A DNA stretch of 54,158 nt from Rickettsiales bacterium. GTDB lineage: Bacteria > Pseudomonadota > Alphaproteobacteria > Rickettsiales > SXRF01. Both the position numbers and the translations under genes were made by a program. Below are positions 7,411 through 21,967 of this stretch, one piece after another. The notes beneath the pieces were generated by a model that saw only the letters and a list, made by a program, of their open reading frames with translations, had not been told where the DNA came from and made no database searches. How positions within the stretch are numbered: the stretch's first letter is position 1; each line of letters starts with the position of its first letter. The DNA lies in the NCBI GenBank assembly GCA_005792635.1, contig SXRF01000102.1, positions 1 through 54,158 of the forward strand, in the 5' to 3' direction.

Positions 7411-8160
7411 TCATCTCCGCCTGTCGCCAAACAGGTGGAGGAGTTGCAGAAAGAGGTTGATAAAATCGAGGTAAAGAGTCAGCGCGCCCATGATGACGAT
7501 CTTGCCCGCCCATTCGCCTTCGTTTGAAAGCTGATAGTACAGGCTCTTGAGTTTTTGCGTGTCAAAGGCAGTGAGCCCCACGAAGACCAATACGCCGATA
7601 ATAGAAACGGCGAATTGCAGGCCGGAGCTTTTAAGAAATAGATTCACCAGTGAGGCGATAATAATGCCCCACAGCCCCATCATCATAAACGACCCAAGTC
7701 CCGTTAGGTCGCGCTTAGTGGTGTAGCCATAGAGACTCATGCCGCCGAATGTGGCAGCGGTGATAAAGAACACGCGGGTAATGCTTTCACCGGTAAAGGT
7801 TAAGAATATCGTAGAAAGTGACAGCCCCATCAACGCCGCATAAATCCAGTAGCTGATCTGCGCGGCCATTAAGCTCATGCTCCTCAGCCCAAAACTGAGA
7901 TACATAACCAAGCCAAGCGGAGCAAACATCACGATCCATGCCAGCGGCTTCATGCCGGTGATCGCATTGCCCTCGATAGTGTACATGGCACTTAAGACCG
8001 CCTCGGACTGCGAGGAGAACAGCGCGATAATGCCGGTCAGCAACAATCCGCTCGCCATGTAATTATAAATTTTCAGCATGTAAGCGCGCAAACCTGCATC
8101 GAAACCTATGGCGGTCTGGCGAGTTGTACTGCGATGAGTGTGTAGTTCCTGGTAGGCCAT
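7411..8160 (-). CDS. Bax-inhibitor-1/YccA-family membrane protein
   Basis: 249 aa with about 7 TM segments. N-terminus ...GFDAGLRAYMLKIYNYMASGLLLTG and a C-terminal charged tail, typical of the BI-1/YccA family. Confidence 0.85.
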   Translation of the reverse strand: MAYQELHTHRSTTRQTAIGFDAGLRAYMLKIYNYMASGLLLTGIIALFSSQSEAVLSAMYTIEGNAITGMKPLAWIVMFAPLGLVMYLSFGLRSMSLMAAQISYWIYAALMGLSLSTIFLTFTGESITRVFFITAATFGGMSLYGYTTKRDLTGLGSFMMMGLWGIIIASLVNLFLKSSGLQFAVSIIGVLVFVGLTAFDTQKLKSLYYQLSNEGEWAGKIVIMGALTLYLDFINLFLQLLHLFGDRRR

Positions 8161-8161
8161 G

Positions 8162-8659
8162 TTATTCTCCTTTCACTACTGGGGATGGTTTATCCCTTGT
8201 TACGGAGGATTTCGTTTCATCCCTCAAAACTTTTTCTTCGCCGGTTCCGCGTGGCTCGATCTGCCAGATCATGGAGTCCATTCGCTCGCGCATCGCTTTC
8301 ATTTCGCCACTCATCTCCGGCATCGGGCAGTCTTTCTCCTTACCCATGCAATGCTGCATAGTAATCCGCATGTTTTCCATGCGTCTTTCCATATATTCGA
8401 GATCGGCGATGATCTGGCAATGCGCTGTCATATCTGGCATGCAGTGCTGGCTGGCGCGATGCGCCGCCATTTCTTCTTCCATCCGCTTCATTGCTTCGTT
8501 CATGCGACAATGAGCATCCATTCCCTGCATGCAGTGCGGCATGTTACCGCCATGCGTATCTGGCTTGTTCTCTTTGGCAAACGCCGCGTGATAACCAAAC
8601 ACCACGGCGATGATCACAAAAAAGAGGAAAGTATTAAAAAATGGTCGGCTGCTAGTCAT
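8162..8659 (-). CDS. Secreted helical His/Cys/Met-rich protein (repeated HCM..AHC motif)
   Basis: 165 aa. Signal peptide ...VVFGYHAAFA|KE. Motifs MPHCMQGMDAHC, QHCMPDMTAHC and MQHCMGKEKDCPMPEM. Confidence 0.55.
   Translation of the reverse strand: MTSSRPFFNTFLFFVIIAVVFGYHAAFAKENKPDTHGGNMPHCMQGMDAHCRMNEAMKRMEEEMAAHRASQHCMPDMTAHCQIIADLEYMERRMENMRITMQHCMGKEKDCPMPEMSGEMKAMRERMDSMIWQIEPRGTGEEKVLRDETKSSVTRDKPSPVVKGE
8198..8226 (-). promoter_or_regulatory. ECF-type promoter motif TGAGGGAT-N14-CGTAACA, upstream of the BI-1/YccA gene
   Basis: Exact match to the motif found at four other sites, with the same 14-nt spacing. It lies inside the 3' end of CDS 8162..8659, about 40 nt before ATG 8160. Confidence 0.55.
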
Positions 8660-9101
8660 GAGCGGTGCCTATTGCAGATGCTTTGTGTTTGGGGTAGAGG
8701 TGATCAAGAATAGGACACTGGCTAATCGGCGTATCACCGCCTGGGCATATTTTGGAAAGGTGCGTAAGTGCTTTCTCGACGCGCTCTAATTCTTTTACCT
8801 GTTTCTTTGCCTCGATAATTTTCTGGTGCGTCCGTTCCAGCATAGTGGCGCAAGTCGCATCCTTGCTCGATTTCAGGGTAAGCAGCCTTTTAATCTCGGC
8901 GAGGGTAAAACCAAGCTCCTTCGCGTTCTTGATGAACATCACCTGACGTACGCTGTTTGCATCGTATAGTCGGTAGCCAGACTTGGAACGGCGTTCCGCC
9001 TGCACTAGCTTAAAGCGTTCATAGTAGCGGATCGTGTCGATGCGAACACCGCACATTTCCGCCAATTTTCCGATAGTAATCGTGGCATGGTTCTTTGTCA
9101 T
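8652..9101 (-). CDS. MerR-family metal-responsive transcriptional regulator (three-Cys type)
   Basis: 149 aa. HTH IGKLAEMCGVRIDTIRYYER. It has a Cys at the start of the dimerisation helix (KDATCATML) and a C-terminal CPGGDTPISQCPILDHL loop. Confidence 0.85.
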   Translation of the reverse strand: MTKNHATITIGKLAEMCGVRIDTIRYYERFKLVQAERRSKSGYRLYDANSVRQVMFIKNAKELGFTLAEIKRLLTLKSSKDATCATMLERTHQKIIEAKKQVKELERVEKALTHLSKICPGGDTPISQCPILDHLYPKHKASAIGTAHD

Positions 9102-9109
9102 AAGTCTGC

Positions 9110-9141
9110 ACCCTACACCTTGGACTATAGTGAAAGGTCAA
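9110..9141 (-). promoter_or_regulatory. MerR-type promoter/operator (TTGACC-N20-TAGGGT with an internal dyad)
   Basis: Minus strand reads TTGACCTTTCACTATAGTCCAAGGTGTAGGGT. The 20-bp spacer is characteristic of MerR-activated promoters. The -10 lies 8 nt before ATG 9101. Confidence 0.6.
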
Positions 9142-9328
9142 TCACTAATCGCTTGTCGGCGAATAATAATTGACTTCGATCAAATCTTCCTCGGGTTTCT
9201 GTACTTGGGCGACTTGCTTTTGAGGCGGCTTCCTTAAATAATGCTCAACCTCATTCATGGTCGGGACAGAGGGAAGCGATCGCTTGGATGGGCTTTCTTT
9301 TAGAGCAGTCTGTTCCTTCAACATATCG

Positions 9329-9505
9329 CTAACCGCAGCAACATTTGTTCTTGGATTTCTTTTCAACGGGATGCTCGGCAGCCTGCGCTGGTTTTTCCGA
9401 ACAATGCTCTTGCGGCTTAGAGATATCCTTTTGAGTAGCGGCTTGAGGCGATTTCATGTGATCGCAACATTCAGGCTTAGTAGGGTTTGATGAAGTATTT
9501 TGCAT
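9329..9505 (-). CDS. 58-aa Cys-cluster peptide (below the ORF-track cut-off)
   Basis: Hand translation: MQNTSSNPTKPECCDHMKSPQAATQKDISKPQEHCSEKPAQAAEHPVEKKSKNKCCCG*. GGAGGAG lies 6 nt upstream of the ATG, and a MerR-type promoter lies about 35 nt upstream. Confidence 0.45.
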   Translation of the reverse strand: MQNTSSNPTKPECCDHMKSPQAATQKDISKPQEHCSEKPAQAAEHPVEKKSKNKCCCG

Positions 9506-9540
9506 GTGTAACTCCTCCGTTGGTGGTTGAAAACAGGCTG

Positions 9541-9572
9541 ACCCTACACCCTGGACTATAGTACAAGGTCAA
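9541..9572 (-). promoter_or_regulatory. MerR-type promoter/operator (TTGACC-N20-TAGGGT)
   Basis: Minus strand reads TTGACCTTGTACTATAGTCCAGGGTGTAGGGT, nearly identical to the site at 9110..9141. Confidence 0.6.
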
Positions 9573-9590
9573 GCGTTTTCTGATAAGGAC

Positions 9591-9986
9591 TTACATCATG
9601 CCCATAAGCATCATCTTCGGTGCTAGAAAGGCAAAGAAAACGCCTATAAAATAGGCTGATACCGAAATATAAAAAATCCAGCCGCTGATTCTCCGAAGCC
9701 GCGCACAGGCTTTTGCTTGCGCCGGATCAGCGAGGCATGGAGCATTCCGGTTAAGATAGCGCAGTGCTCCAGAAATCGTGAGCATAATCCCTGCGAAAAT
9801 AAACAGCGGGGTCTTGTGTTCGGAAAGCCATACCAATCCTGGCATGGCACTAAACAATCCAATCAGGGCTGCACCAGCACCCAGCGTCACGAGCAGTGCT
9901 GGTAGCGCGCAACACAATAATGTGCTCATTGAAGCAAAGAGCGCGACGGTAGGAACAACTCCGCGGTGCAGCTTTGCCTTATGCAT
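9591..9986 (-). CDS. MerT/MerC-like membrane protein with a CC..P motif
   Basis: About 131 aa with about 4 TM segments. The first TM carries LLCCALPALLVTLG, like mercuric-ion transporters. There is a second Cys pair, CLADPAQAKAC. ATG 9986 overlaps the upstream stop (TGATG). Confidence 0.6.
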   Translation of the reverse strand: MHKAKLHRGVVPTVALFASMSTLLCCALPALLVTLGAGAALIGLFSAMPGLVWLSEHKTPLFIFAGIMLTISGALRYLNRNAPCLADPAQAKACARLRRISGWIFYISVSAYFIGVFFAFLAPKMMLMGMM

Positions 9987-10273
9987 CAATTCACCCGTTC
10001 GATTTTTACCACGTCATAGCCTGCATTTTTTACGAGCGTCGTGAGCGTTGCGTCATCAATCGTTTTGCTCGGCTGAAAATCGATGGTCACCAGCTTGGCA
10101 TCAAGATCAACGATGGTGTCTTTTACGGTATCGAGCTTTCCAAACGTGCGCTTAATACCCTCCGCACAGAAAGCGCACACCAAGCCGTTAACGCTGATTT
10201 TTGCTGTTTCTGCGAATGCCGGAGAGCCGATGGAAGTGGCCAGCATTGCTGTGATAAGAATAAATTTACGCAT
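9986..10273 (-). CDS. Periplasmic heavy-metal-associated (HMA) domain protein, MerP-like
   Basis: 95 aa. Signal peptide ...SPAFA|ET followed by VNGLVCAFCAEGI (CxxC) in a ferredoxin-like HMA pattern. AGGAGG RBS. Confidence 0.8.
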   Translation of the reverse strand: MRKFILITAMLATSIGSPAFAETAKISVNGLVCAFCAEGIKRTFGKLDTVKDTIVDLDAKLVTIDFQPSKTIDDATLTTLVKNAGYDVVKIERVN

Positions 10274-10283
10274 AATTTCCTCC

Positions 10284-11324
10284 TTAAAATGTGAGATTCC
10301 AATTAAACATGACCGTATTATCGCTGCTGTAACCGACCTCGGCCAGAATGTTGCCTTTGAACAGCCGCACGAGCGGCGTAACTACGACTTCATCTTCCAT
10401 TCCAGGCTGGTGCTCCACTTGCAGCATCAACCATGTATGCAAATCATCGTATTTACCGATATAGGGCGCTACCCCGACACGGGCTTTTTGTGAAAATTGC
10501 TTGTCAATGTCCCCCGCATAAAGTGCCTGATTCTCGTAAGAGACAAAAATTCTTCTGGTTTCGTAATCAGCTAAAATTCCTGCCCATGCCGCTGGCTCAG
10601 TGTTGCTGCCTTGTTGTGCCGCTCCTGCGCCGGAGAGAAAAAAGAGGTTTCCCTGTGCATCCGGCATATTCCAGCGATTCACCAGATAGTTAAATTGTAG
10701 GCTGTGTACCCAATACTCCTCTTCGCGCATCCACTCGTTGCTGGTACCTATGGAATAATTGGCGGTTGGTGCATAGACGATATGAAGAAGATTTTCCGAA
10801 CCATTGTTCTCTTGCATAACCATCCAACCGCCCGCGTAAGGAATTGGCTTGGCCTCGGCCACCTGCGGCAAAGAGAAAAAAGCTGCGATGCTGACAATCA
10901 ATGCGGCAATCCCAGCTTTAGCCTTCCGGTTGATATGTTCGAGGATGGGGCAGCAATCAAGCGGACTGTCATCGGCGGGACACTGTTCGGCCAGTTGTTT
11001 TAGCACCTTTCTGATTTCTTTGAGTTCAAGAATGCGAGTTTCAGCTTGCTTTATTTTTGCTTCAGTATGTTTGAGAATCTCAGCGCAGGTTGCTTTATCG
11101 GAACCTTTAAGTGCCAGCAGCTGGCGAATTTCATCCAACGTAAAGTTCAACTCCTTTGCGCCGCGGATGAAACGAACAAGCCTCACCGCTTCAGGGCTAT
11201 AAAGACGGTACCCTGCTGGTGAGCGCGATTCAGCGGAAATCAACTTCAGTCTTTCATAATAACGCAGAGTTTCTGCGCTGACTTCAGTGATTTCCGCCAA
11301 TTTTCCGATGGTGAGCTGTTTCAT
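10284..11324 (-). CDS. MerR-family regulator fused to a TM/signal-like segment and a ~190-aa beta-rich OMP-like domain
   Basis: 346 aa. Residues 1-~135 are MerR (IGKLAEITEVSAETLRYYER, KATCAEIL, CPADDSPLDCCPILEH). Then comes NRKAKAGIAALIVSIAAFFSLPQVAEA|KP. Alternating-hydrophobic strands follow, ending ...VMFNWNLTF. Confidence 0.7.
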   Translation of the reverse strand: MKQLTIGKLAEITEVSAETLRYYERLKLISAESRSPAGYRLYSPEAVRLVRFIRGAKELNFTLDEIRQLLALKGSDKATCAEILKHTEAKIKQAETRILELKEIRKVLKQLAEQCPADDSPLDCCPILEHINRKAKAGIAALIVSIAAFFSLPQVAEAKPIPYAGGWMVMQENNGSENLLHIVYAPTANYSIGTSNEWMREEEYWVHSLQFNYLVNRWNMPDAQGNLFFLSGAGAAQQGSNTEPAAWAGILADYETRRIFVSYENQALYAGDIDKQFSQKARVGVAPYIGKYDDLHTWLMLQVEHQPGMEDEVVVTPLVRLFKGNILAEVGYSSDNTVMFNWNLTF

Positions 11325-11344
11325 ATTTTTCCCTCGATTTTTAC

Positions 11345-11376
11345 AGCATACACCTTTGAGTATACTACAAGGTCAA
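11345..11376 (-). promoter_or_regulatory. MerR-type promoter/operator (TTGACC-N20-TATGCT)
   Basis: Minus strand reads TTGACCTTGTAGTATACTCAAAGGTGTATGCT. It lies about 20 nt upstream of ATG 11324. Confidence 0.6.
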
Positions 11377-11390
11377 GGGATATTTTGTTG

Positions 11391-12308
11391 TTATTTTACA
11401 ATTACCCCTAGTGGCGCGAACAGGTCTTTGCCATCAATGCGTGTTTGCACGAACAGTTTCACAAAACCGGCTTTTTCAGGCTCGATATGGAATTGCAACT
11501 CTGGCCCACCGCGCTCGGATTCCGAAGTGGGTTCCTTGCCCATTGGATGAATGTGAAGGATGGTATTGCCGTCCTCACCAAAGCCTACGATATGCGCGAA
11601 TGCGCCCATCACCGGCTGTAAGTTTGATACGGGCTTTCCTGCCTTATCGGTCACTACCACTTTCCCCATGACGGGTTTCTCGGCTACCAGCGGCTCATCA
11701 AAGCTGAGAGCAAATTGATAGCCACCGGCTTCTGACTTACTGATAAGCGTTTTATCCATCTCGTGAGAGGTAATCGACGACTTGCCGATATCGGTTTTAA
11801 TATATTCCTGCTTTCCGGTGGTCGCAGGGGTTACGTCCGTCCAGATTCGGTAGCTTGAATCTTTCTTTGGCGTGAAATCAAACGCCCATTCACCCGCCTT
11901 GTCGGTGGGTGTGGGGTGGATATGGTGGTAATCGGTAAGCGTAGGATCAATCACCAGCAAATGCACACGCTGCGTATGCACCACGTTGATTGCTTCTGGT
12001 GTTACAGGCTTGCTGTCCTTAGTAGAGGCAATTTGCATGAGCATTTTGGTGGTTTTGCCCGCTTTCAGTTCGCCCTGTGGCAGCACTTTCACCGCAAGCG
12101 TTTTGGCAACTTCACCATGCTCATGAGTGCCTTCTTTTTTGCCATGATCCATACCTTGCATGGAATCGGCTGATTTTTGCATGTGCGGGCAGTCTTTACC
12201 CGGCATGCAATGTTTCATTTCACCGCCCATTTCACCGTGATCGTGGGCAAAGGCGGGCGCGACAATCGCTAGTGAACTTCCGATTAAAAGTGCGTGCAGT
12301 AATTTCAT
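11391..12308 (-). CDS. Secreted protein with a His/Met/Cys-rich N-terminus and two beta-rich domains, unknown function
   Basis: 305 aa. Signal peptide ...APAFA|HDHGEMGGEMKHCMPGKDCPHMQK. It contains HHIHP and ILHIHPMG motifs. Confidence 0.55.
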   Translation of the reverse strand: MKLLHALLIGSSLAIVAPAFAHDHGEMGGEMKHCMPGKDCPHMQKSADSMQGMDHGKKEGTHEHGEVAKTLAVKVLPQGELKAGKTTKMLMQIASTKDSKPVTPEAINVVHTQRVHLLVIDPTLTDYHHIHPTPTDKAGEWAFDFTPKKDSSYRIWTDVTPATTGKQEYIKTDIGKSSITSHEMDKTLISKSEAGGYQFALSFDEPLVAEKPVMGKVVVTDKAGKPVSNLQPVMGAFAHIVGFGEDGNTILHIHPMGKEPTSESERGGPELQFHIEPEKAGFVKLFVQTRIDGKDLFAPLGVIVK

Positions 12309-12336
12309 AAATTCTCCGTTGAGTTTGTTGTTGATT

Positions 12337-12771
12337 TTATATGCGGTTGGTCATTTCTTCGCATATGTGCGAGATGCGATTGGCGTGATCTGCCCAGCCT
12401 TTGCCTTCTTTCTGCTTTTTCTCAGCTACTTTAGCAGCGCAGGTTGCCGCCAGATCTTTTGGTGGCAACTTTTCATCAGCGTCTGCCGTGGTCAGGTCAT
12501 CCATCTGACGGCAGAGCGATTTCATTTCGAGAATTTCAGGTGACCGCTTAAGCCTTTGCCGTTGCTGAATACCGCGACGCCCAGTGGTGTTGATTTTTTG
12601 CAGGCTGGCAGGCCACTCTGCTTCATTCAGGCACGCAAGGCGCAAGGTCTCTTTGCGTTCTGCTTGAGTGGCGGTTTGTGATAATTTCTGATCAAGTGTC
12701 AATGGTGGAGTAAATTGTGCCGCACACGCTGATAACAGCAGTGTTGTGGCTAATAGTACCGTAGTTTTCAT
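12337..12771 (-). CDS. Lipoprotein, unknown function
   Basis: The start was set to MKTTVLLATTLLLSAC (lipobox LLSAC). An ECF-type promoter motif lies upstream. Confidence 0.5.
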   Translation of the reverse strand: MKTTVLLATTLLLSACAAQFTPPLTLDQKLSQTATQAERKETLRLACLNEAEWPASLQKINTTGRRGIQQRQRLKRSPEILEMKSLCRQMDDLTTADADEKLPPKDLAATCAAKVAEKKQKEGKGWADHANRISHICEEMTNRI

Positions 12772-12810
12772 GCCATTCTCCATGCGTACTGTTTATGTTT
12801 TCGCACTTCG

Positions 12811-12839
12811 TAGTACGCAGGAGAATCGGTTATCCCTCA
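12811..12839 (-). promoter_or_regulatory. ECF-type promoter motif TGAGGGAT-N14-CGTACTA
   Basis: Exact motif and spacing. It sits between the stop of 12844..13329 and the lipoprotein gene. Confidence 0.6.
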
Positions 12840-12843
12840 AAAA

Positions 12844-13329
12844 TTATTTTGCTGCACTTTCAACAAGTTTAAGTGCGCCTTGGCTTTTCTTGAGTTCGGA
12901 TAAGGTTTTTTCCAGATTCTTATCATGCGTGCCAATGTGGAAATCCGTGGTGGTTTTTACGAGCTGTTTAAGTGCGCCGAGCAAGCGGACTTTCTTTGCC
13001 GGCTCCATACTTTCCGCTTCTTTTTCAAGAAACTTTGCCGCTTCTCCGATATGGACAGTCACATCGTGCAGCTGATCCATGACTTTGCCATTGGCAAATA
13101 AGTCCGCTTTTTGCTTGTTTACGGCTTCGTCCATAAAGGATACGCCGTCACGCATCACTTTAAGAGCGCCATCTTTGGTGGTTATTTTGGTAGCCTCATC
13201 ATGCACAGCGGAAGGTTCGTGCTGGCCGTGCTGTTCTGTTTTTGAATGATCTTCACCTTCATGCGCCAGCGCAGGTTGCTGCAAGCCAGCGAAGGCCAGT
13301 ATCGCAGTGGTAAGCAGTAGTTTCTTCAT
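12844..13329 (-). CDS. Periplasmic helical protein with a His-rich N-terminus, unknown function
   Basis: 161 aa. Signal peptide ...QQPALA|HEGEDHSKTEQHGQHEPSAVHDE, and the rest is predicted helical. It lies immediately downstream of the RND pump gene. Confidence 0.55.
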   Translation of the reverse strand: MKKLLLTTAILAFAGLQQPALAHEGEDHSKTEQHGQHEPSAVHDEATKITTKDGALKVMRDGVSFMDEAVNKQKADLFANGKVMDQLHDVTVHIGEAAKFLEKEAESMEPAKKVRLLGALKQLVKTTTDFHIGTHDKNLEKTLSELKKSQGALKLVESAAK

Positions 13330-13344
13330 GTCATTCTCCTTGGG

Positions 13345-16300
13345 TTAATGGGTAATTGCCGCTGGTAGCAAAGTAGCGACGGGTTTCTTGCCGAATTTCC
13401 AGAACACCAGCGGGCGCACGGTGAGATCGAGCAGCGTGCTGGAAAATAATCCGCAGAAAATCACCACGGCAACAGGATGCAGGATTTCACGACCCGGCTC
13501 ATCGGCGGCGATAATCAACGGAATCAGTGCAAGGGATGCGGTGAGCGCGGTCATCAATACGGGGATAATCCGCTCGGATGTGCCGCGATAAATCATGGCG
13601 ATGTCGAAGCGTTCGCCCTCATGTTCCATCAGGTGCAGGTAATGCGCGATCATCATGATGCCGTTACGGGCGGCAATGCCGGTGAGCGTGACAAAGCCCA
13701 CCATCGTTGCAATCGAGAACACGCCGCCGGAGAGCCATACGCCAATCACCGCACCGATAAAGGCCAACGGTATTGATACCATCACCTGAAGCGCAAGGTT
13801 TGCACTTTTGAAATGCACGAACAGCACCATGAACATGCCCGCCAGCGAAAACAGGCTTAATACGGCAATCAAGCGCGAGGCACTGGCTTGGCTTTCAAAC
13901 TGTCCGCCATAGGTAATGTAGTAGCCTTGTGGTAGCTGCACTTTGCTATCAATCGCTGCCTGTACTTTCTTCACCACGCCCACCAGATCACGCTCGGCGA
14001 CGTTGGCCTGAATCACAATGCGCCGCTGGGCGTTTTCGCGGTTGATGATGTTCGGCCCTTTGGCATCCTGCACGTTGGCAATCGCTTGCAGCGGCACCAC
14101 ATTACCATCCCTGGTATCGACAGGAATTTGCTTGATGGCTTCAATGTCGCTCCGTGCCGCATCGGAAAGACGCATCACGATGTCATAGGTACGCTGGCCA
14201 TCCAGCACTTGCCCCACGGCCTTGCCCTGCATGGCAAGCTCGGCATATTCCGCCGCTTCGCCGGAAAGGAGGCCGTAGGTAGCAGCTTTCTCACGATCAA
14301 ACAGCACATGCACTTGTGGAATAAGCACCTGCTTTTCCACCGACAGATCCACCACTCCTTCCACTTCGCTCATGGCTTGGCGGATTTCTTCGGCTTTAGC
14401 ACGAAGCACATCCAAATCCGTGCCGAACAGCTTGATGGCGATCTGCGCCCGCACACCGCTCATCATGTGGTCAATGCGGTGCGAAATAGGCTGGCCGATA
14501 TTCACCGCGATTCCGGGAATCTCATCCAAGCGGCTGCGTATATCGGCAAGAATGACAGCGCGAGAACGCTTGGATTCTTTCAACTCCACCTCAATCTCAC
14601 TGGAATGCACGCCTTCTGCGTGGTCATCGCGTTCTGCGCGGCCTGTGCGCCTTCCGGTTTCGGTGGCTTCCGGCACTTGGCGGATAAGGTTTTCCGCAAT
14701 CGTGCCGATACGGTTGGATTCAGCAAGGCTGGTTCCAGGTGGGGTCAGGATGTTTATCGTCACCGAGCCTTCATTGAATTGTGGCAGGAATTCCTTGCCG
14801 AAGAACGGCACCATCGCCAGCACTGCAAATGTCATGACAGCAACCGCTGTCAGCACAGTTTTGCTATGCGGAAAAGCAAAATTCAGGACACGGGTTTGAA
14901 GCGATTTAATTTTCCGTAGCAGCCAGCCATCATGTTCTGCACTCATGCGTTTCATGTTCGGCAATAGATACGAGCAAAGGGCTGGGGTGAGCGTGAGCGA
15001 TACGAACAGCGAAGCAATGATGGACGTAATGTAGGCAATACCCAGCGGTAGGAAGATTTTTCCTTCGATACCATCCATTGCAAAAAGCGGGATGAATACC
15101 AGCACCACAATGATGGTGGCGAATACGATGGAGTTCCGCACCTCGCTGGATGCCTCATAAATCACTTGCAGTGGGTTGCGGGGTTTTTCGGCATGGCGGT
15201 TTTCACGCAAGCGGCGGAAGACGTTTTCCACATCCACAATCGCATCATCCACCAGTTCGCCAATTGCCACGGCCAAACCGCCCAGCGTCATGGTATTGAT
15301 ACTCATGCCAAACATATTGAACACGATAGCCGTCAATACGAATGAAAGCGGAATGGCGGTGAGCGTGATAAAGGTGGTGCGGAAGTTAAGGAGAAACAGG
15401 AACAGCACGATAGCAACCAGTATCGCACCATCGACCAAGGCTTTCTCTACATTTTTGATTGCCCGCTCGATGAATGTGCCTTGCTTGAAGATTTCACCGT
15501 GGATTTTTACGCCTTCGGGCAGGTTTTTTTGAATGCTGGCAAGCTCGGCTTCAATCGCTTTGGTGAGTTTGATGGTGTCTGCGCCGGGTTGTTTCTGAAC
15601 AGAGAAAATCACGGCAGGACTACCATTGACGCTGGCATCGCCGCGCTTTGCCAGAGGGCCACCAAGTTTAATATCCGCTACCTGATCGAGCGTGAGCGGT
15701 GTCGGACTGCCATTTTCTTTCGGCAACGGCGATTTTGCCAGATCATCAAGTGTTTTTACTCTGGCGATATTGCGGATTAAGCCTTCCTGATAATCAGAAA
15801 GCAGAAAGCCGCCTGTAGCATTGATATTGGAACCAGCGATGGTTGCTTCCACATCATGCAGCGTCACGCCATAATTTTTAAGTTTCAGCGGGTCAACCAA
15901 CACCTGATATTGTTTCAGATCGCCGCCAATCACTGATACTTGCGAAATGCCGGAAATGGAAAGCAAGCGGTTACGAATATCCCACTCCGCAATCGTGCGT
16001 AAATCCATGCCACTGATTTCAGGATTTTCGGAAGTTAGCCCCACCAGCATGATTTCCCCCATAATGGAAGAAATCGGCCCCATGACAGGGCGTGCGTCCT
16101 GTGGCAGCGTTTCCTGCGCCTGTTGCAGCTTCTCCGCGACAATCTGGCGTGCCGTGTAAATATCGGTATCCCAGCCGAATTCTACCCATACAATCGAAAG
16201 CCCGATAGCTGATGCCGAGCGCACGCGCTCAACGCCCGTGGAGCCGTTCACCGCCGTTTCAATCGGCCATGTCACCAGTGCTTCCACTTCCTCCGGCGCA

Positions 16301-16467
16301 AGCCCTTCGGCTTCTGTGAAGATGGTTACGGTAGGACGATTCAGATCGGGAAACACATCCACTGGCAGCTTGCTGATGACAAACACGCCGTACACCAGCA
16401 GCATGGCAGAAGCGGCAACCACCAGAAGCCTGTTTTTTAGCGAAAACTGTATGATAGAGTTGAGCAT
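13345..16467 (-). CDS. Heavy-metal-efflux RND permease (CusA/CzcA family)
   Basis: 1040 aa. N-terminus [17 protein letters not shown]...[29 protein letters not shown] and a 12-TM RND architecture. TM4 reads [20 protein letters not shown]. Confidence 0.92.
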   Translation of the reverse strand: [1040 protein letters not shown]

Positions 16468-16469
16468 GG

Positions 16470-17423
16470 CTAATCCTTATGCTCGTCTTTTTTAGGTTCG
16501 GCTGATTTAGCGAATTGCAGCTGATAATTTCCCACCGTCACCACTTCTTCATCAGGGAACACGCCTTCCAAAACTTCACGATCATTGCTGAATTTTGCGC
16601 CGAGCTTCACGCTACGCCGCTCGAAATTATTGCCGCTACGGACAAACACAAACTGTTCGCCGCTTTCACCGAGGATTGCTTTCACCGGCACGGTTAGAAT
16701 GTCGGCGGGCGTGGTGATCTCAATCGACAACACCACCTGCATGTTTGCCAGCAATCGACGGTCAGGATTGTTTACTAGCGCATAGACATTGAACGTGCGG
16801 CTTCCGCGATCATACGCGCCATCCATACGCTGCACCGTTCCCGCAAGAGGTTCACCGCTTATCAAGTTGCTGGATACGCGCACCTTTTGCCCCACCTGAA
16901 TCTTGCCAACTTCCGGTGTTTCATACATGACACCGCGCACCAATATCTCAGACGGATCACCCACTTCCATCAACGCCGCTTCTGGCGTGACGGACTGCCC
17001 CAGCACCACGCTTTGTTTGGTGACAAAGCCGGTCAGCGGCGATGGAATGGCAACTGGCGAACTTCCAACAAAGATCGGCTGTATGGTAAGCAATCTTTGG
17101 CCTTTGGTGACTTTCTCTCCCACCTTGACGTGAATCTCAGATACACGGCCAGCAGCGCGGGAAGTAATGATTGCCTGACGTTCAGGCAGGAATTCAACGA
17201 GGCCATTCACATCTACGGAGGCGGCACGCGGGGCGATCACCGCTTTTACTGTCTGGATTCCGAGGTTGTTGATGGCTGTATCAGAAAGCGTTACCGTACT
17301 AACAACGCCCGAACCTCCCTCGGTACCGGGTGCTTCAGCATGATCTTCTCCCGCATGGGCGAAGGCTTGCCCTGCAAGCCCCATACTTCCCAGCAATGCG
17401 AGTGCGATAAACAGCTTCTTCAT
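16470..17423 (-). CDS. RND periplasmic adaptor (membrane fusion protein)
   Basis: 317 aa. Signal peptide ...GQAFA|HAGEDH. It has a barrel-sandwich/beta-barrel MFP pattern and is sandwiched between the OMF and RND genes with overlapping or adjacent junctions. Confidence 0.85.
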   Translation of the reverse strand: MKKLFIALALLGSMGLAGQAFAHAGEDHAEAPGTEGGSGVVSTVTLSDTAINNLGIQTVKAVIAPRAASVDVNGLVEFLPERQAIITSRAAGRVSEIHVKVGEKVTKGQRLLTIQPIFVGSSPVAIPSPLTGFVTKQSVVLGQSVTPEAALMEVGDPSEILVRGVMYETPEVGKIQVGQKVRVSSNLISGEPLAGTVQRMDGAYDRGSRTFNVYALVNNPDRRLLANMQVVLSIEITTPADILTVPVKAILGESGEQFVFVRSGNNFERRSVKLGAKFSNDREVLEGVFPDEEVVTVGNYQLQFAKSAEPKKDEHKD

Positions 17424-18643
17424 TTAATTTCCTCCAGCTTTCCGCCTAGTTCTAATTCCAGTTGCCCGCGTGCGTTCACGGCTTGCGCCAGCGCATCCAG
17501 TGCCTCATTCTCGCTGGTCAGTAATTTTTCGCGCACCTGCCAGACTTCAAGCGCATCGGCTTGGCCTTGGCGGAACATGCTGCGGGTGAGTTCATACGAT
17601 TTTCGGTATCCGGGCAGGATACTCTCAAAATAACTATCGGCGCGGCCTTGCAGCGCGGCGGCACTTTGTTGTAATTCTCCAATCACCTCTTTTTGGGGCA
17701 GGTTCACGAACAAATCTGCTTCCGATTTCACTTGGCGTAATTCTGCATTGGCACGTTTGCGTTCGGCATCGTTCTGATTCCAGAGGGGAATACGAAGGGC
17801 AATGCCTACGCCATAGGATTTTTCATCCCCATCGGGTGAGCGTGAGTAGATCAGGCGAGGCCCGATTTCCGGTAGGGCGGCATCCTGCTCTGCAACGCTT
17901 AAGCGGCGTTCTGCGGCATTAATACGACTTTTTACCACGTTACGGAGGTTGGATTGCTCTTTAGCGAAGGCCAGCAATTTCTCGGTGTCCTGCGGCACAT
18001 CAACAAAAGACGGGCGTTGCAATTCAGCCAGCTGGTAACTGCGCCCCGTCAGTCGCGCCAGATCGGTACGCACCTGCCGTAGTTCTGCTTCCACAGCGTT
18101 GGAATCAGCGCGAAGTTTTGCAGCATCAGAGGAAAAGAGGTGCGAGGCGGCGGGGCTGGTCTGGCCTTGTCCTGCGGATGTACCCACCAGTTTCTTCATT
18201 TTCTCCGCATCATCGGCATAATTCTCATAGAGCTTTTTACGCTCGGAAAGCAGCCATACCTGTGTGTACAGCACGGTGGTTTCGTTAATCACTTTCAGGA
18301 TTTCATATTTCTGTTCGGTGCTGGCGACATTGGATAATGCTTCGGCATAGCCGTAGCGTGCGCCGGAAAGCTGGGAAAACTTCAAAGGCTGGGTGAGTTC
18401 AACATCTGCGCCTGTGCCGTTCTCACCGCTGGCGCGGGTGGCATCGATATTGAATTCCGGATTATCCAGCAGCTTGGTTTCCGTGGCAGTTGCCAGCTTA
18501 TCTTCATAGTCACGCTGGACACGGAACAGGCTGGTATTTTTCTGCAAGCTCTCTCTAATCACCTGATCGAGCGTGATGGATTCGGCGAAAGCGGCAGCGG
18601 GGAAAGCCGCGCTGATGGCTATGATGGCGATAATTTTCTTCAC
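17420..18643 (-). CDS. TolC-family outer membrane factor of the RND system
   Basis: 407 aa with a signal peptide and two-repeat OEP helices. GTG start with a GGGGAGA RBS. It overlaps the MFP start by 4 nt. Confidence 0.85.
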   Translation of the reverse strand: MKKIIAIIAISAAFPAAAFAESITLDQVIRESLQKNTSLFRVQRDYEDKLATATETKLLDNPEFNIDATRASGENGTGADVELTQPLKFSQLSGARYGYAEALSNVASTEQKYEILKVINETTVLYTQVWLLSERKKLYENYADDAEKMKKLVGTSAGQGQTSPAASHLFSSDAAKLRADSNAVEAELRQVRTDLARLTGRSYQLAELQRPSFVDVPQDTEKLLAFAKEQSNLRNVVKSRINAAERRLSVAEQDAALPEIGPRLIYSRSPDGDEKSYGVGIALRIPLWNQNDAERKRANAELRQVKSEADLFVNLPQKEVIGELQQSAAALQGRADSYFESILPGYRKSYELTRSMFRQGQADALEVWQVREKLLTSENEALDALAQAVNARGQLELELGGKLEEIK

Positions 18644-18663
18644 TCGATTCTCCCCGAATTTGG

Positions 18664-18703
18664 TTAATAAAAGTGGCCTACTCTCTTACGAGATAGGCCA
18701 CTT
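18664..18703 (-). terminator. Stem-loop plus T-tract (intrinsic terminator or attenuator)
   Basis: Perfect 10-bp stem AAGTGGCCTA/TAGGCCACTT (18671-18680 and 18694-18703), followed on the minus strand by TTTTATT. It sits between 18715..19089 and the OMF gene. Confidence 0.45.
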
Positions 18704-18714
18704 ATACTAGCATT

Positions 18715-19089
18715 TTATTTGCAAGCTGCTGAAGAAAATACATAACCTCCACGCTCCGCACTGAGCACGCTGCAACTGAATGGATACTCGGACACGTCCG
18801 TGTAACGATTGAAATGTTTCACTTCGCCGCCTTTGTAGCCAATCTTAGCAAAATACTCTTGACTGCGCTTGGCTGTGCGTTGCTGCGGCGTAACGGCAAA
18901 ATCGTAATCATGATTTTTTGTCACCGCGCTGGTGTTGCTGCTGGTTTTTCCGATCCAGTATGCCTCACGGTCGTGAATCCGTTGGCGCTCCGGACTCATC
19001 GGGTAAGCGTTATCGTAGGCTTGCGCCGCCGAAGAAAGCAGAACCGCAGACAGTCCCGCAATGGTTAATATCCTGCTAATGTTTTTCAT
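18715..19089 (-). CDS. Secreted repeat protein (YP..QR..K...EYF units), unknown function
   Basis: The start was set to MKNISRILTIAGLSAVLLSSAAQA. It is a paralogue of 19825..20169 and shares KNxDYDFAVTPxQRTAKR. Confidence 0.55.
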   Translation of the reverse strand: MKNISRILTIAGLSAVLLSSAAQAYDNAYPMSPERQRIHDREAYWIGKTSSNTSAVTKNHDYDFAVTPQQRTAKRSQEYFAKIGYKGGEVKHFNRYTDVSEYPFSCSVLSAERGGYVFSSAACK

Positions 19090-19143
19090 ATTGTGTCTCC
19101 CAATCCTATGGTTAGTGGTTGGCTTACGGGGGTAAGCACTCAC

Positions 19144-19172
19144 TAATACGAAGAAGAAACGACCATCCCTCA
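19144..19172 (-). promoter_or_regulatory. ECF-type promoter motif TGAGGGAT-N14-CGTATTA
   Basis: Exact motif and spacing. It explains the spurious MRDG... N-terminal extension of track ORF 18715..19173. Confidence 0.6.
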
Positions 19173-19185
19173 AAAAAATTGCAGG

Positions 19186-19755
19186 TTATTTTCGTAAGGA
19201 AAACAGTGAAGAATCGAGCTTCTGGCCGAAATGGGCATTATTGAGAGATACGGAAGTCACTTGATTGGCGGCATCTGTGACGATCAGGTTCCGCAGCACG
19301 AAGGGCGAGTCCGAAAACTCCAAGGTGAGTTTGCCTTCTTCCGGTTTTTTCGCCTGGTGAAGCGTCACGCGCAACACGCCATCAACGTCCGATGCTTCCT
19401 CCACCACCACATTCTCGTCGAAACGGATGGGGTCGTTCATGAGAAATCCGGCTGGAGTGGAATCCATCGGGATGTAGGTTGTTTGCGCCAGCTCCTTATC
19501 AAAATAGATAAGCTGAGATCCGCTGCTCACCATCAGAATAGGTGTTGGCGGCGCGTACTCCCAACGCATCTTGCCTGGGCGTTCAAAATAAAACCTTCCC
19601 TCAGCCAGCAAGCCATCAGGCGACACCTGCGTAAAATCGGCTACGATGGTGCTGAGGCCGTTCAAATAGGCTTCCACACGACGCAGCGCATCGTCACCGG
19701 CACGCGCGGATGCAGAAGACAAAACAAAAATGATAGTAATGAGCAGCGCACGCAT
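19186..19755 (-). CDS. LolA-family (outer-membrane lipoprotein carrier-like) periplasmic protein
   Basis: 189 aa with a signal peptide. ...LSTIVADFTQVSPDG...GRFYFERPGKMRWEY... is typical of LolA-fold proteins. Confidence 0.7.
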   Translation of the reverse strand: MRALLITIIFVLSSASARAGDDALRRVEAYLNGLSTIVADFTQVSPDGLLAEGRFYFERPGKMRWEYAPPTPILMVSSGSQLIYFDKELAQTTYIPMDSTPAGFLMNDPIRFDENVVVEEASDVDGVLRVTLHQAKKPEEGKLTLEFSDSPFVLRNLIVTDAANQVTSVSLNNAHFGQKLDSSLFSLRK

Positions 19756-19824
19756 TCAAACTCTCAGAAATTAACGGGGCTGAAAGCGTTAGCTTCCAAA
19801 CCCCGTGATGAACCGATAGAGAGA

Positions 19825-20169
19825 TTATTTATTGAAGTAATCGTAATTACGCTTTGCAGTGCGTTGTGCAGGCGTAACAGCAAAATCGTAATCAGCATTT
19901 TTAGTAATCGCTGCACCGCTGCCGGTATTGCCCTTAGCCGCGAAATATTCAGCGTTGCTCTTGGCAAGGCGCTGCTGACGCGTCATAGGATAATCATCGT
20001 CCGTATTTTTCTGAACCGATGCACTACTGCCGGTTTTGCCATGCCAATATTCTTGCTGATTATGGGTACGCTGCTGTTTTGAACCCAGCGGATATGCGTT
20101 ATCGTTTGCCTGTGCTGTACTTGCCGAAGCTATCAAGGCGATAACGCTCAGCGTATAAAACATTTTCAT
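19825..20169 (-). CDS. Secreted repeat protein, three tandem ~33-aa units, unknown function
   Basis: The start was set to MKMFYTLSVIALIASASTAQA. Units: NDNAYPLGSKQQRTHNQQEYWHGKTGSSASVQK / NTDDDYPMTRQQRLAKSNAEYFAAKGNTGSGAAITK / NADYDFAVTPAQRTAKRNYDYFNK. Confidence 0.55.
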   Translation of the reverse strand: MKMFYTLSVIALIASASTAQANDNAYPLGSKQQRTHNQQEYWHGKTGSSASVQKNTDDDYPMTRQQRLAKSNAEYFAAKGNTGSGAAITKNADYDFAVTPAQRTAKRNYDYFNK

Positions 20170-20220
20170 AAAACCAACTCCTGTAAGAGTGACGAGACTT
20201 ATCGAAGGATAAGTACCCAC

Positions 20221-20249
20221 TATTACGAAGGGGAATTGGTCATCCCTCA
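20221..20249 (-). promoter_or_regulatory. ECF-type promoter motif TGAGGGAT-N14-CGTAATA
   Basis: Exact motif and spacing. The TGA of the motif is the stop codon of the sigma-factor gene. Confidence 0.6.
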
Positions 20250-20816
20250 CTTTTTCTTTGAGAGCTTTTCCGTTAATATCTTTCGCGCCCTGTAGACGCG
20301 GGTTTCAAGGGTCTTGGGCGTGATGCCGAGTAGTTCGGCACATTCTTCCTGTGATCGTTCTTCCACTGCAAAGGCGATCAGGGCGGATTTGAGTTTATGT
20401 GGCAGGCGGCTGATCTCCGATTCAACCCATGCCAGTTGCCGTTTGGTATCCACCACCTTGTCTGTGGGCGGTGCGTCGGACGCCAACGTGTCGCCCAACA
20501 CCAGATCTTCGCCGATTTCCTCATCCAGCGATACATGATGCTCACGGCCATTCTTGCGCCAGTAATCGCGGCAAAGATTCAGGGCGATTTGAAACAGCCA
20601 TGTCGAGAATTTATACTGAGGATTGAATTTATCGGCAGAGAAATAGAGCTTGGTGAAGGTTTCCTGCACCAAATCATAGGCTGTTTCTTCATTGTGGACA
20701 TAACGCAGCACAAAAGCATAAAGGCGGTGCTTGTACCGCCTCATTATTTCGTTAAGTGCAGGGTTTTCACCCTGTCGCAAACGCGCTATTAGTTCGTTGT
20801 CACTGCATTGTTCCAT
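20247..20816 (-). CDS. ECF-family RNA polymerase sigma factor (CnrH-like position)
   Basis: 189 aa. Sigma-70 region 2 (YDLVQETFTKLY...FSTWLFQIALNLCRDYWRK) and region 4 (ECAELLGITPKTLETRVYRARK). Confidence 0.9.
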   Translation of the reverse strand: MEQCSDNELIARLRQGENPALNEIMRRYKHRLYAFVLRYVHNEETAYDLVQETFTKLYFSADKFNPQYKFSTWLFQIALNLCRDYWRKNGREHHVSLDEEIGEDLVLGDTLASDAPPTDKVVDTKRQLAWVESEISRLPHKLKSALIAFAVEERSQEECAELLGITPKTLETRVYRARKILTEKLSKKK

Positions 20817-20828
20817 GAATCATTGTCA

Positions 20829-21266
20829 TCACTTGTTTTCAAGAAGCGCGCTTGCAGCCAAGTGATGTAGCTGTTTCGTCTGCTCCGGTGTCAGCACCTC
20901 CTGCATTTCGTAGAAATGCTCAATGGTGAGCTTTTGCAATTCTCCCTGAATGTGATGGATTTTTTCTACCCCAGCCTTCACGCGATCTGAATAGGCCATA
21001 TCCTTCAGCATAATTTCACTGAGTTCGCGGTTAGCCGCAGCAATCCGCACCTCGATCTCTTTTTTTCGCTCGGCGAATTTGTGCTCAATAGGGATCAGCC
21101 GCTGATCCTGCTCTGTGGTCAGCCCCAATTCTTTGTGCAGCCACTCATGCTCGGACAGCTGCGTTTGCGAGTGCGGAAATATCCAGCTATTGCTTATCCA
21201 GCAGACCCCGAAAGCAACAACGGCAACTATAAGCGTCAGCCGGAGGTCACGATAAAATGATTTCAT
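20829..21266 (-). CDS. Membrane-anchored periplasmic metal sensor, CnrX-like
   Basis: 145 aa with an N-terminal TM and then a helical domain. HEWLH...IPIEHKF...EIEVRIAAANREL...LQKLTIEHFYEM...LTPEQ aligns, from memory, with the CnrX ligand positions. Confidence 0.7.
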   Translation of the reverse strand: MKSFYRDLRLTLIVAVVAFGVCWISNSWIFPHSQTQLSEHEWLHKELGLTTEQDQRLIPIEHKFAERKKEIEVRIAAANRELSEIMLKDMAYSDRVKAGVEKIHHIQGELQKLTIEHFYEMQEVLTPEQTKQLHHLAASALLENK

Positions 21267-21613
21267 GTGTTCCTGTTTTTTGTGTTGATATTAGAGAAAA
21301 GAAGATAGCCTGGTTTTGAAGAAAAAACCTCAAAATTCAGCGCATCAGAAGCAGCAACCGGTCTATCAGGCAACGGATTGAAACTGGTCATCTGCCCCAT
21401 CGACAAACCGATGACAACCGCCAACGCAACGGGCGCAAGACGGTACTGCGGCTGGAATATCACCGACAGCAGCTGCTCGAACCAACCCACCGGTTGCTCC
21501 TGCTTGCGCGCTACGATCCGACTCCACACATCGCTTTCGAGATGCTTAAGTCCTGACGTATCTATCGGGCGCTCGAAATAGCGCCGCAGCAATTCATTGA
21601 TATTGAAGCTCAT
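21263..21613 (-). CDS. Small single-TM anti-sigma factor candidate (CnrY-like position)
   Basis: 116 aa: a short cytoplasmic N-terminus, the TM segment LAPVALAVVIGLSMG and a short periplasmic tail. ATGA overlap with the CnrX-like gene. First gene of a three-gene unit that ends in the ECF sigma gene. Confidence 0.55.
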   Translation of the reverse strand: MSFNINELLRRYFERPIDTSGLKHLESDVWSRIVARKQEQPVGWFEQLLSVIFQPQYRLAPVALAVVIGLSMGQMTSFNPLPDRPVAASDALNFEVFSSKPGYLLFSNINTKNRNT

Positions 21614-21644
21614 AAAACACTCCTTTTTGGTCGATCTACGCTTC

Positions 21645-21673
21645 TTATACGCAGAAAGTCCAGCGATCCCTCA
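21645..21673 (-). promoter_or_regulatory. ECF-type promoter motif TGAGGGAT-N14-CGTATAA (probably autoregulatory)
   Basis: Exact motif and spacing, about 30 nt upstream of ATG 21613, with an AAGGAG RBS in between. Confidence 0.6.
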
Positions 21674-21746
21674 GATTATTTTAGTGCAAGGGTTTTGTCT
21701 TAACCTTTTGACAATTCATCCCTCTTAGGGCTATCCTGCAATTCGA

Positions 21747-21895
21747 GGGGGCTGAAAATCCCCGTAAACTGCGATTATTTTAAGTAGGCTCGTATCAGAA
21801 AGCCCTGCCTCCGCACGCATGCGTCGGGAGGGGGCCTAATACAATACCCGCAAGGGGAATAAGCCTGCGCCCGTTTACGGCGATTTTCAGCTCCC
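21747..21895. repeat. ~150-bp imperfect long inverted repeat (structured RNA or MITE-like element candidate)
   Basis: Outer arms 21747-21769 and 21873-21895 pair over 23 positions with 1 mismatch and 1 G:T. The apex CCTCCGCACGCATGCGTCGGGAGG is palindromic. Internal bubbles lie between the arms and the apex. Confidence 0.5.
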
Positions 21896-21938
21896 GGCAC
21901 CATCCGGTGTCAATCCAGATAGCGATGGTACGAACCTA

Positions 21939-21967
21939 TAAGGGATAACCCTCATAGATTCGTACCA
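21939..21967 (+). promoter_or_regulatory. Near-consensus ECF-type motif TAAGGGAT-N14-CGTACCA on the plus strand
   Basis: One mismatch to the -35 consensus and identical 14-nt spacing. It lies immediately upstream of the XRE gene and is embedded in the 8-bp inverted repeat GGTACGAA/TTCGTACC. Confidence 0.35.

Follow-up and report, generated by a model that had tools for sequence, protein, structure and literature searches.

A CnrYXH-like gene module and the probable promoter of its ECF sigma factor in a metal-resistance region of a Rickettsiales bacterium

Contig SXRF01000102.1 of a Rickettsiales bacterium (54,158 nt; this whole stretch is referred to as the window, and all window coordinates apply to its full length) carries a set of metal-resistance genes on the minus strand. 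The set starts with a three-gene operon coding for a small membrane protein (Y), a membrane-anchored metal sensor (X) and an extracytoplasmic function (ECF) sigma factor. Two related repeat proteins, a LolA-like carrier, a resistance-nodulation-division (RND) efflux system, a lipoprotein, a 305-aa secreted protein and a membrane protein of the Bax1-I family are encoded downstream. Five copies of a two-block motif, TGAGGGAT-N14-CGTA, are distributed over this region and each stands in front of a gene. The motif had been described in an earlier note, made by reading the sequence, as the promoter of an ECF regulon. Coordinates of the genes, sites and structural elements are compiled in Table 1.

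Table 1. Features of the window discussed in the text
Feature	Position	Strand	Remarks
Exact 26-nt motif matches	8226-8201, 12839-12814, 19172-19147, 20249-20224, 21673-21648	-	pattern search
P1 (site 5)	21645..21673	-	TGAGGGAT-CGCTGGACTTTCTG-CGTATAA; exact match; 27.0 bits; 34 nt before Y start codon
P2 (site 4)	20221..20249	-	exact match; 31.3 bits; before repeat protein A
P3 (site 3)	19144..19172	-	exact match; 42.1 bits, top score in the window; before repeat protein B
P4 (site 2)	12811..12839	-	exact match; 38.6 bits; before 148-aa lipoprotein and 305-aa protein
P5 (site 1)	8198..8226	-	exact match; 25.2 bits; 40 nt before ATG at 8160 of the Bax1-I/YccA-like gene
Y, 116 aa, one hydrophobic segment	21263..21613	-	putative anti-sigma factor at -2; no Pfam/NCBIfam match
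X, membrane-anchored periplasmic metal sensor, CnrX homologue	20829..21266	-	Pfam Metal_resist PF13801, E 1.2e-11
ECF sigma factor, 189 aa, sigma2 and sigma4 only	20247..20816	-	Sigma70_r2 PF04542, Sigma70_r4_2 PF08281
Repeat protein A, 114 aa	19825..20169	-	signal peptide; three ~30-aa repeats, QRxAK...(E/D)YF core; no Pfam/NCBIfam match
Terminator-like hairpin, repeat protein A / LolA-like gene	19774..19806	-	-25.9 kcal/mol, z -4.2, then UUAAUUUCU
LolA-like periplasmic carrier	19186..19755	-	Pfam LolA PF03548, E 4.9e-28
Repeat protein B, 124 aa, paralogue of A	18715..19089	-	38% identity to A
Intrinsic-terminator-like hairpin, repeat protein B / outer membrane factor gene	18660..18709	-	UUUUAUU tail; -26.8 kcal/mol, z -5.1
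RND operon	12844..18643	-	outer membrane factor 18643-17420, adaptor 17423-16470, pump 16467-13345, 161-aa secreted protein 13329-12844
Lipoprotein, 148 aa	12337..12783	-	no Pfam match
305-aa secreted His-motif protein	11391..12308	-	no Pfam match
Motif-free block	8162-11324	-	MerR fusion, HMA, MerT-like, MerR, Cys/Met/His-rich 165-aa open reading frame
Bax1-I family membrane protein, YccA-like	7411..8160	-	Pfam PF01027, E 2.6e-61
Palindrome	21926..21967		arms 21926-21944 and 21949-21967, 19 nt, 89% complementary, 4-nt centre

The exact pattern TGAGGGAT-N14-CGTA was searched on both strands, with 100 dinucleotide-preserving shuffles as control. Exactly five matches were found, all on the minus strand, and none occurred in the shuffles. 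The search reproduced the five exact sites of the earlier note including their positions, their spacers and the three bases following CGTA. The spacer has a different sequence at each of the five sites and a length of 14 nt at all of them. Distances from the end of CGTA to the start codon are 34, 54, 57, 30 and 40 nt for P1 to P5, so that the range of 25-45 nt given previously fits three sites (34, 30 and 40 nt) and has to be extended for the other two (54 and 57 nt). The window sites combine a fixed spacing, a CGT-containing -10 region, the direction of the following gene and a location 30-57 nt 5' of it, as is characteristic of ECF promoters. A weight matrix trained solely on sites from other genomes yielded 25-42 bits for the five sites, 14-16 bits for the halves of a palindrome described below and not more than 8 bits for the rest of the 54 kb; the best score in 20 shuffles was 12.1 bits. 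One match with a single mismatch at 46401-46426 (+) was rejected as a site, since it is located inside open reading frames (ORFs) of the glycan cluster and scored below 8 bits. Two further matches with two mismatches are present in the window. The 25-kb glycan cluster had been judged free of the motif by eye, and the weight matrix gave nothing above 8 bits there.

Two of the sites overlap coding sequence. The -35 box of P2 opens on the sigma gene's TGA stop codon (20249-20247), and P5 is situated within the 3' end of a 165-aa ORF (8162..8659). The motif can be read in frame as TTG/GTG-AGG-GAT, which explains the spurious MRD... starts of the ORFs 18715..19173 and 19825..20250, as had been supposed. 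The leaders following P2 and P3 (20223-20170 and 19146-19090, minus strand) are paralogous and each opens with a short hairpin. The stems differ by paired changes (GCUUAC-CCCC-GUAAGC versus ACUUAUC-CUUC-GAUAAGU), and the P2 leader is nearly identical in the homologous locus L004.

An alignment of 36 sigma homologues served to scan 185,579 species genomes for homologous loci, and 80 loci with 40-66% identity were obtained (numbered L). Homologues of the sigma factor count in the hundreds, derive mostly from alphaproteobacterial metagenome-assembled genomes and reach 68% identity in the best non-self match. Pattern counts were made over 81 sequences (the 80 loci and the window; 1.2 Mb). Of these sequences, 46 contain the exact 12-base pattern, with 79 occurrences in total. 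A relaxed core, GAGGGA-N15-CGT[AT], was found 127 times across the 80 loci, nearly always on the strand of the sigma gene. The motif with at most one mismatch is present in the 120 nt preceding the Y homologue in 39 of the 48 loci in which that region was available, and at the sigma stop in 41 of 79 loci with a readable stop. In 26 of these 41 loci the -35 box contains the stop codon, which then forms the TGA of TGAGGGAT or the TAG of GGGATAG (window 20247-20249; L011-L054). The first gene 3' of a site codes for a Y homologue in 40 cases, for an outer membrane factor (OMF) in 24 and for a homologue of repeat protein A in six, and the gap between site and start codon amounts to 7-57 nt in most other loci.

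Conservation extends to positions that were not fixed by the search. Among 71 unique alphaproteobacterial sites, a T precedes GAGGGA in all 71, a T follows GGGA in 66, and the third base after CGTA is an A in 70. The spacer carries about 0.1-0.5 bits per position in these sites, and the upstream flank is A/T-rich. An unbiased 6-mer count over 130 nt upstream of Y homologues pointed to the same elements: TGAGGG is present in 33 of 45 regions compared to 1.2 expected, with CGTATA and GTATTA ranking next. The conservation of positions not imposed by the search, together with the nearly informationless spacer, argues for a two-block promoter under selection and against a repeat or a dimeric operator. 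The -10 element varies by group, being CGTA in Alphaproteobacteria and CGTT in Verrucomicrobia. The loci L049-L080 (Verrucomicrobia and relatives), which code for distant sigma homologues, retain TGAGGGAT-N14 with CGTT in place of CGTA. In seven loci (L056-L059, L062, L067 and L068) a motif on the opposite strand is found just 3' of the sigma gene, where it precedes an ORF of 216-231 aa with weak N-terminal similarity to Y.

The operon behind P1 codes for proteins of the Y-X-sigma type. X is a clear relative of CnrX: CnrX and NccX were its only sequence matches in the PDB (E 2e-14, full length), and H40, H44, E61, H117 and M121 of X align with the CnrX residues H42, H46, E63, H119 and M123 (counted on the 3zg1 sequence). 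All five residues are invariant in five aligned homologues. Y homologues are encoded in 47 loci, always as the first gene of the operon, and share an LESDVW motif and a hydrophobic stretch. A Pfam search with 24 Y members returned noise only, and a PDB sequence search with Y gave no match. The sigma factor scores above the cut-off of the NCBIfam sigma70-ECF superfamily.

Taken together, these data make it very probable that the ECF sigma factor encoded at 20816-20247 has TGAGGGAT-N14-CGTA(W)(T)A as its cognate promoter, a conclusion drawn from sequence comparison. In the mechanism we propose, the -35 element TGAGGGAT would be read by domain 4 of the sigma factor and the CGTA core of the -10 element by domain 2. 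Y and X would sequester the sigma factor until binding of metal to X causes its release. RNA polymerase carrying the sigma factor would then start about 8-10 nt after each CGTA at five promoters of a 14-kb metal-resistance region. P1 would drive Y, X and the sigma gene itself and thereby provide positive autoregulation, P2 would serve repeat protein A, P3 repeat protein B, P4 the lipoprotein and the secreted His-motif protein, and P5 the Bax1-I/YccA-like membrane protein. Partial read-through of hairpins may provide for expression of the LolA-like gene and the CusA/CzcA-type pump. The earlier idea of an autoregulated ECF-type promoter and of a multi-promoter metal-stress regulon is supported by the 80 homologous loci and by the mapped CnrH promoters on plasmid pMOL28; dependence of the regulon on the sigma factor and on metal is what we infer.

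Several observations weigh against this interpretation. Y showed no similarity to CnrY by BLASTP or by hhalign (24 Y homologues, probability 0.5%), so its putative anti-sigma role is assigned from position, size and topology. The sigma factor shares 30% identity with CnrH (71.6 bits) and scores higher with SigW (87 bits) and RpoE (81 bits); in phmmer and profile searches of the PDB, CnrH ranked behind SigW, RpoE and RpoE/AlgU-like sigma factors. The five CnrX ligands are also invariant in homologues encoded beside copper genes and hence do not identify the metal. Transcription from P2 and P3 could be stopped by the hairpins 3' of the repeat protein genes before it reaches the pump and the LolA-like gene. 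Finally, site counts for the source genome cover 54 kb and thus capture the regulon as far as the window reaches, and the source organism is apparently known from metagenomic assemblies only. An assignment of metal specificity from the CnrX ligands was rejected for the reason given above, namely that copper-linked homologues carry the same five residues. The cnrYXH-like character ascribed to the operon in the earlier note thus holds for gene order, the X sensor and the promoter type and does not extend to Y, which lacks similarity to CnrY, or to a sigma factor that is 30% identical to CnrH.

More tentatively, and with slightly less in its favour than against it, the sigma factor and Y may represent a distinct, uncharacterised ECF lineage in which recognition of CnrH-type promoters and the CnrX sensor were retained, with a regulon reaching beyond efflux. 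Uncultured Rickettsiales-like and Micavibrio-like Alphaproteobacteria commonly carry this lineage, which extends to Verrucomicrobia. If it is indeed distinct, its direct targets would include the repeat protein, the LolA-like protein, the Bax1-I/YccA-like protein and the 305-aa family, for which no role in metal resistance is established. The -35 box overlapping the sigma stop codon would then mark a conserved junction of regulatory and effector modules.

A near-copy of the motif had also been reported on the plus strand in front of an XRE-family gene. The near-site TAAGGGAT-N14-CGTA is present at 21939-21964 (+), and a mirror copy that had escaped notice, TGAGGGTT-N14-CGTA, is located at 21954-21929 (-). 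Both belong to the palindrome listed in Table 1, which folds as RNA with -28.1 kcal/mol (z -8.7). The locus L046 contains a homologous XRE gene and, at the same distance, a palindrome of the same geometry, GGTGAATCTGCGAAGC-GAAA-GCCTCGCAGATTCACC, without GAGGGAT or CGTA. Since geometry was kept and sequence was not, the conserved entity should be a hairpin or an operator and not a promoter, and the pattern points to compensatory change. Upstream of the palindrome and the XRE-family gene, both loci share a nearly invariant 64-nt block that matches Rfam sRNA-Xcc1 (RF02221) at 21823-21906 (+) in the window (55 bits) and at 6542-6625 (-) in L046 (54.5 bits; gathering score 53). The literature associates sRNA-Xcc1 with symE-carrying integron cassettes and not with XRE genes. 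Translation of the XRE gene (21974-22354) probably starts at GTG 21989, which is preceded by a GGGAG Shine-Dalgarno sequence (21980-21984) kept in L046, and not at ATG 21974.

The palindrome could be a weak bidirectional ECF promoter that serves the XRE gene and provides a second, upstream start for the sigma operon. Each half is one base off the exact pattern and scores slightly above the best of the 20 shuffles, and the XRE gene's GGGAG/GTG start would fit behind a transcription start 3' of the plus-strand CGTA. We nevertheless regard this as unlikely. The changed bases hit invariant or nearly invariant positions of the 71 sites, the G of TGAGGG and the A of GGGAT. The high complementarity of the arms around a 4-nt centre and the very stable fold argue in the same direction, as do the motif-free counterpart in L046 and the sRNA-Xcc1-like element preceding the palindrome in both loci. 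The near-site was therefore judged unlikely to be a sixth ECF promoter, and of the earlier statement the sequence at 21939 stands, its promoter role probably not. Most probably the palindrome belongs with the XRE/sRNA-Xcc1 unit and its resemblance to the ECF promoter is incidental.

A different objection concerns the sigma factor. An ECF sigma factor from elsewhere in the genome might be the main one to read the sites, the adjacent one having a different or overlapping specificity. A CGT-containing -10 element is common to many ECF groups, while the -35 element TGAGGGAT is unlike the other -35 consensus sequences of the same compilation (PMC13492112, Table 4). By sequence, the adjacent sigma factor is as near to SigW and RpoE as to CnrH. 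On the other hand, the motif travels with this sigma family over 80 loci in different phyla and stands before the sigma factor's own operon in the 39 of 48 loci mentioned above. A copy in that position typically identifies an ECF promoter as cognate and autoregulated, and we consider recognition by a foreign sigma factor improbable.

Still less probable is that the motif acts as an operator for the XRE protein or for either of two MerR-family proteins. An XRE gene lies divergently beside the operon in the window and in nine other loci, the palindrome before it contains motif-like halves, and two MerR genes are found within the region. Dimeric helix-turn-helix proteins normally bind palindromes, whereas the motif is asymmetric, oriented towards the gene and fixed in spacing, stands 24-57 nt before start codons and has an A/T-rich upstream flank. 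Moreover, most motif-bearing loci are devoid of a nearby XRE or MerR homologue, and the palindrome of L046 lacks the motif. That the five sites are duplicated or mobile copies, or a chance pattern without regulatory meaning, hardly deserves credence: sites 3 and 4 precede paralogous genes with similar 5' untranslated regions and this pair therefore shares ancestry, but the shuffles produced no match, the five spacers differ, only the two blocks are conserved in the 71 sites and placement in front of genes is stereotyped.

With the motif thus best explained as the promoter of the adjacent sigma factor, the genes behind the five sites can be considered as its putative targets. Repeat protein A has relatives in about 20 clusters among 5.8 billion proteins, all unnamed and confined to Rickettsiales-like metagenomic bins, and the family is always encoded by the first gene after an ECF promoter. 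An AlphaFold2 model of the protein consists of three helices with low confidence (pLDDT 54). Terminator-like hairpins follow the genes of both repeat proteins. None of 200 shuffles was as stable as the hairpin at 18660..18709, and in L004 a hairpin is present between the genes for repeat protein A and OMF (about 10998-11032). The position of these hairpins would make expression of the LolA-like gene and the pump dependent on read-through. Probably, the repeat proteins are the promoter-proximal products, and we infer that the pump and the LolA-like gene are reached by read-through; such hairpins suggest graded expression within the operons. The previous assignment of P2 to repeat protein A and the LolA-like gene, and of P3 to repeat protein B and the RND pump, is accordingly kept for the two repeat proteins and has to be qualified for the genes behind the hairpins. 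The LolA-like protein falls below the NCBIfam LolA equivalog cut-off. In L051 a LolA-like and repeat-protein pair is encoded behind a TGAGGGAT-N14-CGTC site.

The RND operon was recognised by the Pfam families OEP, HlyD_D23 and ACR_tran, and the pump reached 826.6 bits with TIGR00914 (cut-off 701). Its best PDB matches were CusA, followed by ZneA. In 24 other loci the motif directly precedes the OMF gene, and the closest loci (L002, L004, L005 and L007) display the order Y-X-sigma-[motif]-repeat protein A-OMF-membrane fusion protein-RND-161aa-305aa. Comparison of the window with L002-L009 revealed 82-90% identical DNA in the RND operon (13262-18586) and 96-97.5% identity of the pump protein, versus 72-77% DNA identity in the sigma region and 57-60% identity of the sigma protein. 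The excess identity of the efflux module is suggestive of horizontal transfer, with exchange of the module, but may reflect no more than stronger constraint.

With more than 500 members, all unnamed, the family of the 305-aa protein has no Pfam model and is characterised by the invariant motifs DYHHIHP and HIHPMG. Family members follow RND pumps in 16 of the loci fetched, and in L004 an exact site of its own stands 32 nt upstream of a 90%-identical homologue. In the AlphaFold2 model (pLDDT 75), two beta-sandwich domains come after an N-terminus that is disordered and rich in His and Met. Single-sequence and profile searches of the PDB gave no match for this protein. Foldseek returned generic Ig-like folds at low TM-scores, among them the DUF4198 zinc-capture protein Zcp, and this model-based resemblance to Zcp/DUF4198 is only a lead. 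The motif-free block following this gene codes for a 346-aa protein (10284-11324, minus strand), a fusion of a MerR DNA-binding domain with some 200 C-terminal residues without assigned function. A stand-alone homologue of this C-terminal region (43% identity) is encoded directly behind an exact ECF motif in L030 (5603-6232). The G+C content is 46-57% in the metal-resistance part of the window (1-24000) and 36-41% in the adjoining glycan cluster (24000-48000).

Literature searches for the motif and for alphaproteobacterial CnrX-type ECF systems returned nothing specific. With SigW and RpoE the system shares the two blocks at fixed spacing, the CGT in the -10 element and the placement of a promoter ahead of the operon that encodes the sigma factor. 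SigW, however, recognises an AAC-type -35 element. TGAGGGAT is unlike this type of element, of which the RpoE consensus is another example (PMC13492112).

The closest counterpart is cnrYXH-cnrCBAT of Cupriavidus metallidurans CH34 plasmid pMOL28, to which nccYXH is related. Both systems share the order membrane protein, CnrX-type sensor, ECF sigma factor and efflux genes, the five metal ligands of CnrX and a downstream heavy-metal RND pump. The promoters, taken directly from the pMOL28 sequence, occupy the same places as P1 and P2, namely before Y and directly after the sigma stop. cnrYp, before cnrY, reads CAAGGGGGAG...CCGTATAAG (longer read ...CAAGGGGGAGTCCTTCGCGCAGCCGTATAAG...), and cnrCp, 13 nt after the cnrH stop, reads CCGAGGGGAAG...CCGTATAGA (longer read ...CCGAGGGGAAGCATCGACCTGGTCCGTATAGA...). 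In cnrYp, cnrCp and the window sites a G-tract -35 element is located 17-19 nt before a CGTATA-like -10 element. The -10 element CCGTATA was mapped by primer extension and run-off transcription, with the main start 23 bp upstream of cnrY (PMC13492112), which corresponds to a start about 10 nt after CGTA. Differences concern the -35 element (TGAGGGAT in the window, (C/A)AGGGG(G/A)AG in cnr), the number of promoters (five versus two) and the pump, which in the window is somewhat nearer to CusA than to the Czc-type ZneA. In addition, the window contains the two orphan repeat proteins, the LolA-like protein, the lipoprotein, the 305-aa His-motif protein and the Bax1-I/YccA-like protein, all of which are extras compared to cnr.

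The formal class that comes closest is ECF291, whose context is defined by an anti-sigma factor similar to CnrY at -2 and a metal efflux operon (PMC7826278). The window agrees with the ECF291 context in a sigma factor consisting of sigma2 and sigma4 only, a CnrX-type sensor, a downstream metal efflux operon and a promoter of the cnrYp/cnrCp type; in the PDB searches the sigma factor itself did not group with CnrH over other ECF groups. In a 2026 study of C. metallidurans start sites, the ECF Hub consensus of ECF291 is quoted as -35 XATACGC and -10 XXCCCTCA, and was used in this orientation to score Cupriavidus start sites (PMC13492112, Table 4). Read on the other strand, the consensus as quoted there becomes TGAGGG...GCGTAT and coincides with the window motif. 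The printed orientation is opposite to that of the downstream genes at the 71 sites and at cnrYp and cnrCp. Judged from these sequences, this indicates that the consensus is printed on the wrong strand in PMC13492112, and this may be the reason that the study did not recognise an ECF291-type promoter at cnrYp.

The same Y-X-sigma operon exists in cultured hosts, on plasmid p3 of Novosphingobium sp. ES2-1 and on pASTEX02 of Asticcacaulis excentricus CB48. TGAGGGAT-N14-CGTA, exact or with one mismatch, is found there before Y, at the sigma stop and before metal genes (ES2-1 p3, L082: 4627-4680 and 5984; pASTEX02, L083: 2245, 4601, 4644 and 7390). Their sigma factors share 40-46% identity with CnrH, but only 32-33% with the window sigma factor. 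Their apparent targets are copper genes coding for a multicopper oxidase, CopB, CopC/D and a copper-binding protein, as well as an RND system. The literature searched contained no experimental work on these two modules, which offer ready experimental systems.

For a little-known group of Alphaproteobacteria, the window thus provides a sequence-level map of a probable ECF sigma regulon, and it nominates several uncharacterised secreted proteins as candidate direct members of a metal-stress response. The CnrH-type promoter TGAGGGAT-N14-CGTAWTA turns out to be common well beyond Cupriavidus, including in front of copper genes on plasmids of cultured strains. The general understanding of ECF signalling is left unchanged, as the system is an uncharacterised relative of the CnrYXH nickel/cobalt switch and not a new kind of system. 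On the sequence evidence we would file it as CnrYXH-like in its mode of working and in its promoter type, rather than as a formal member of ECF291.

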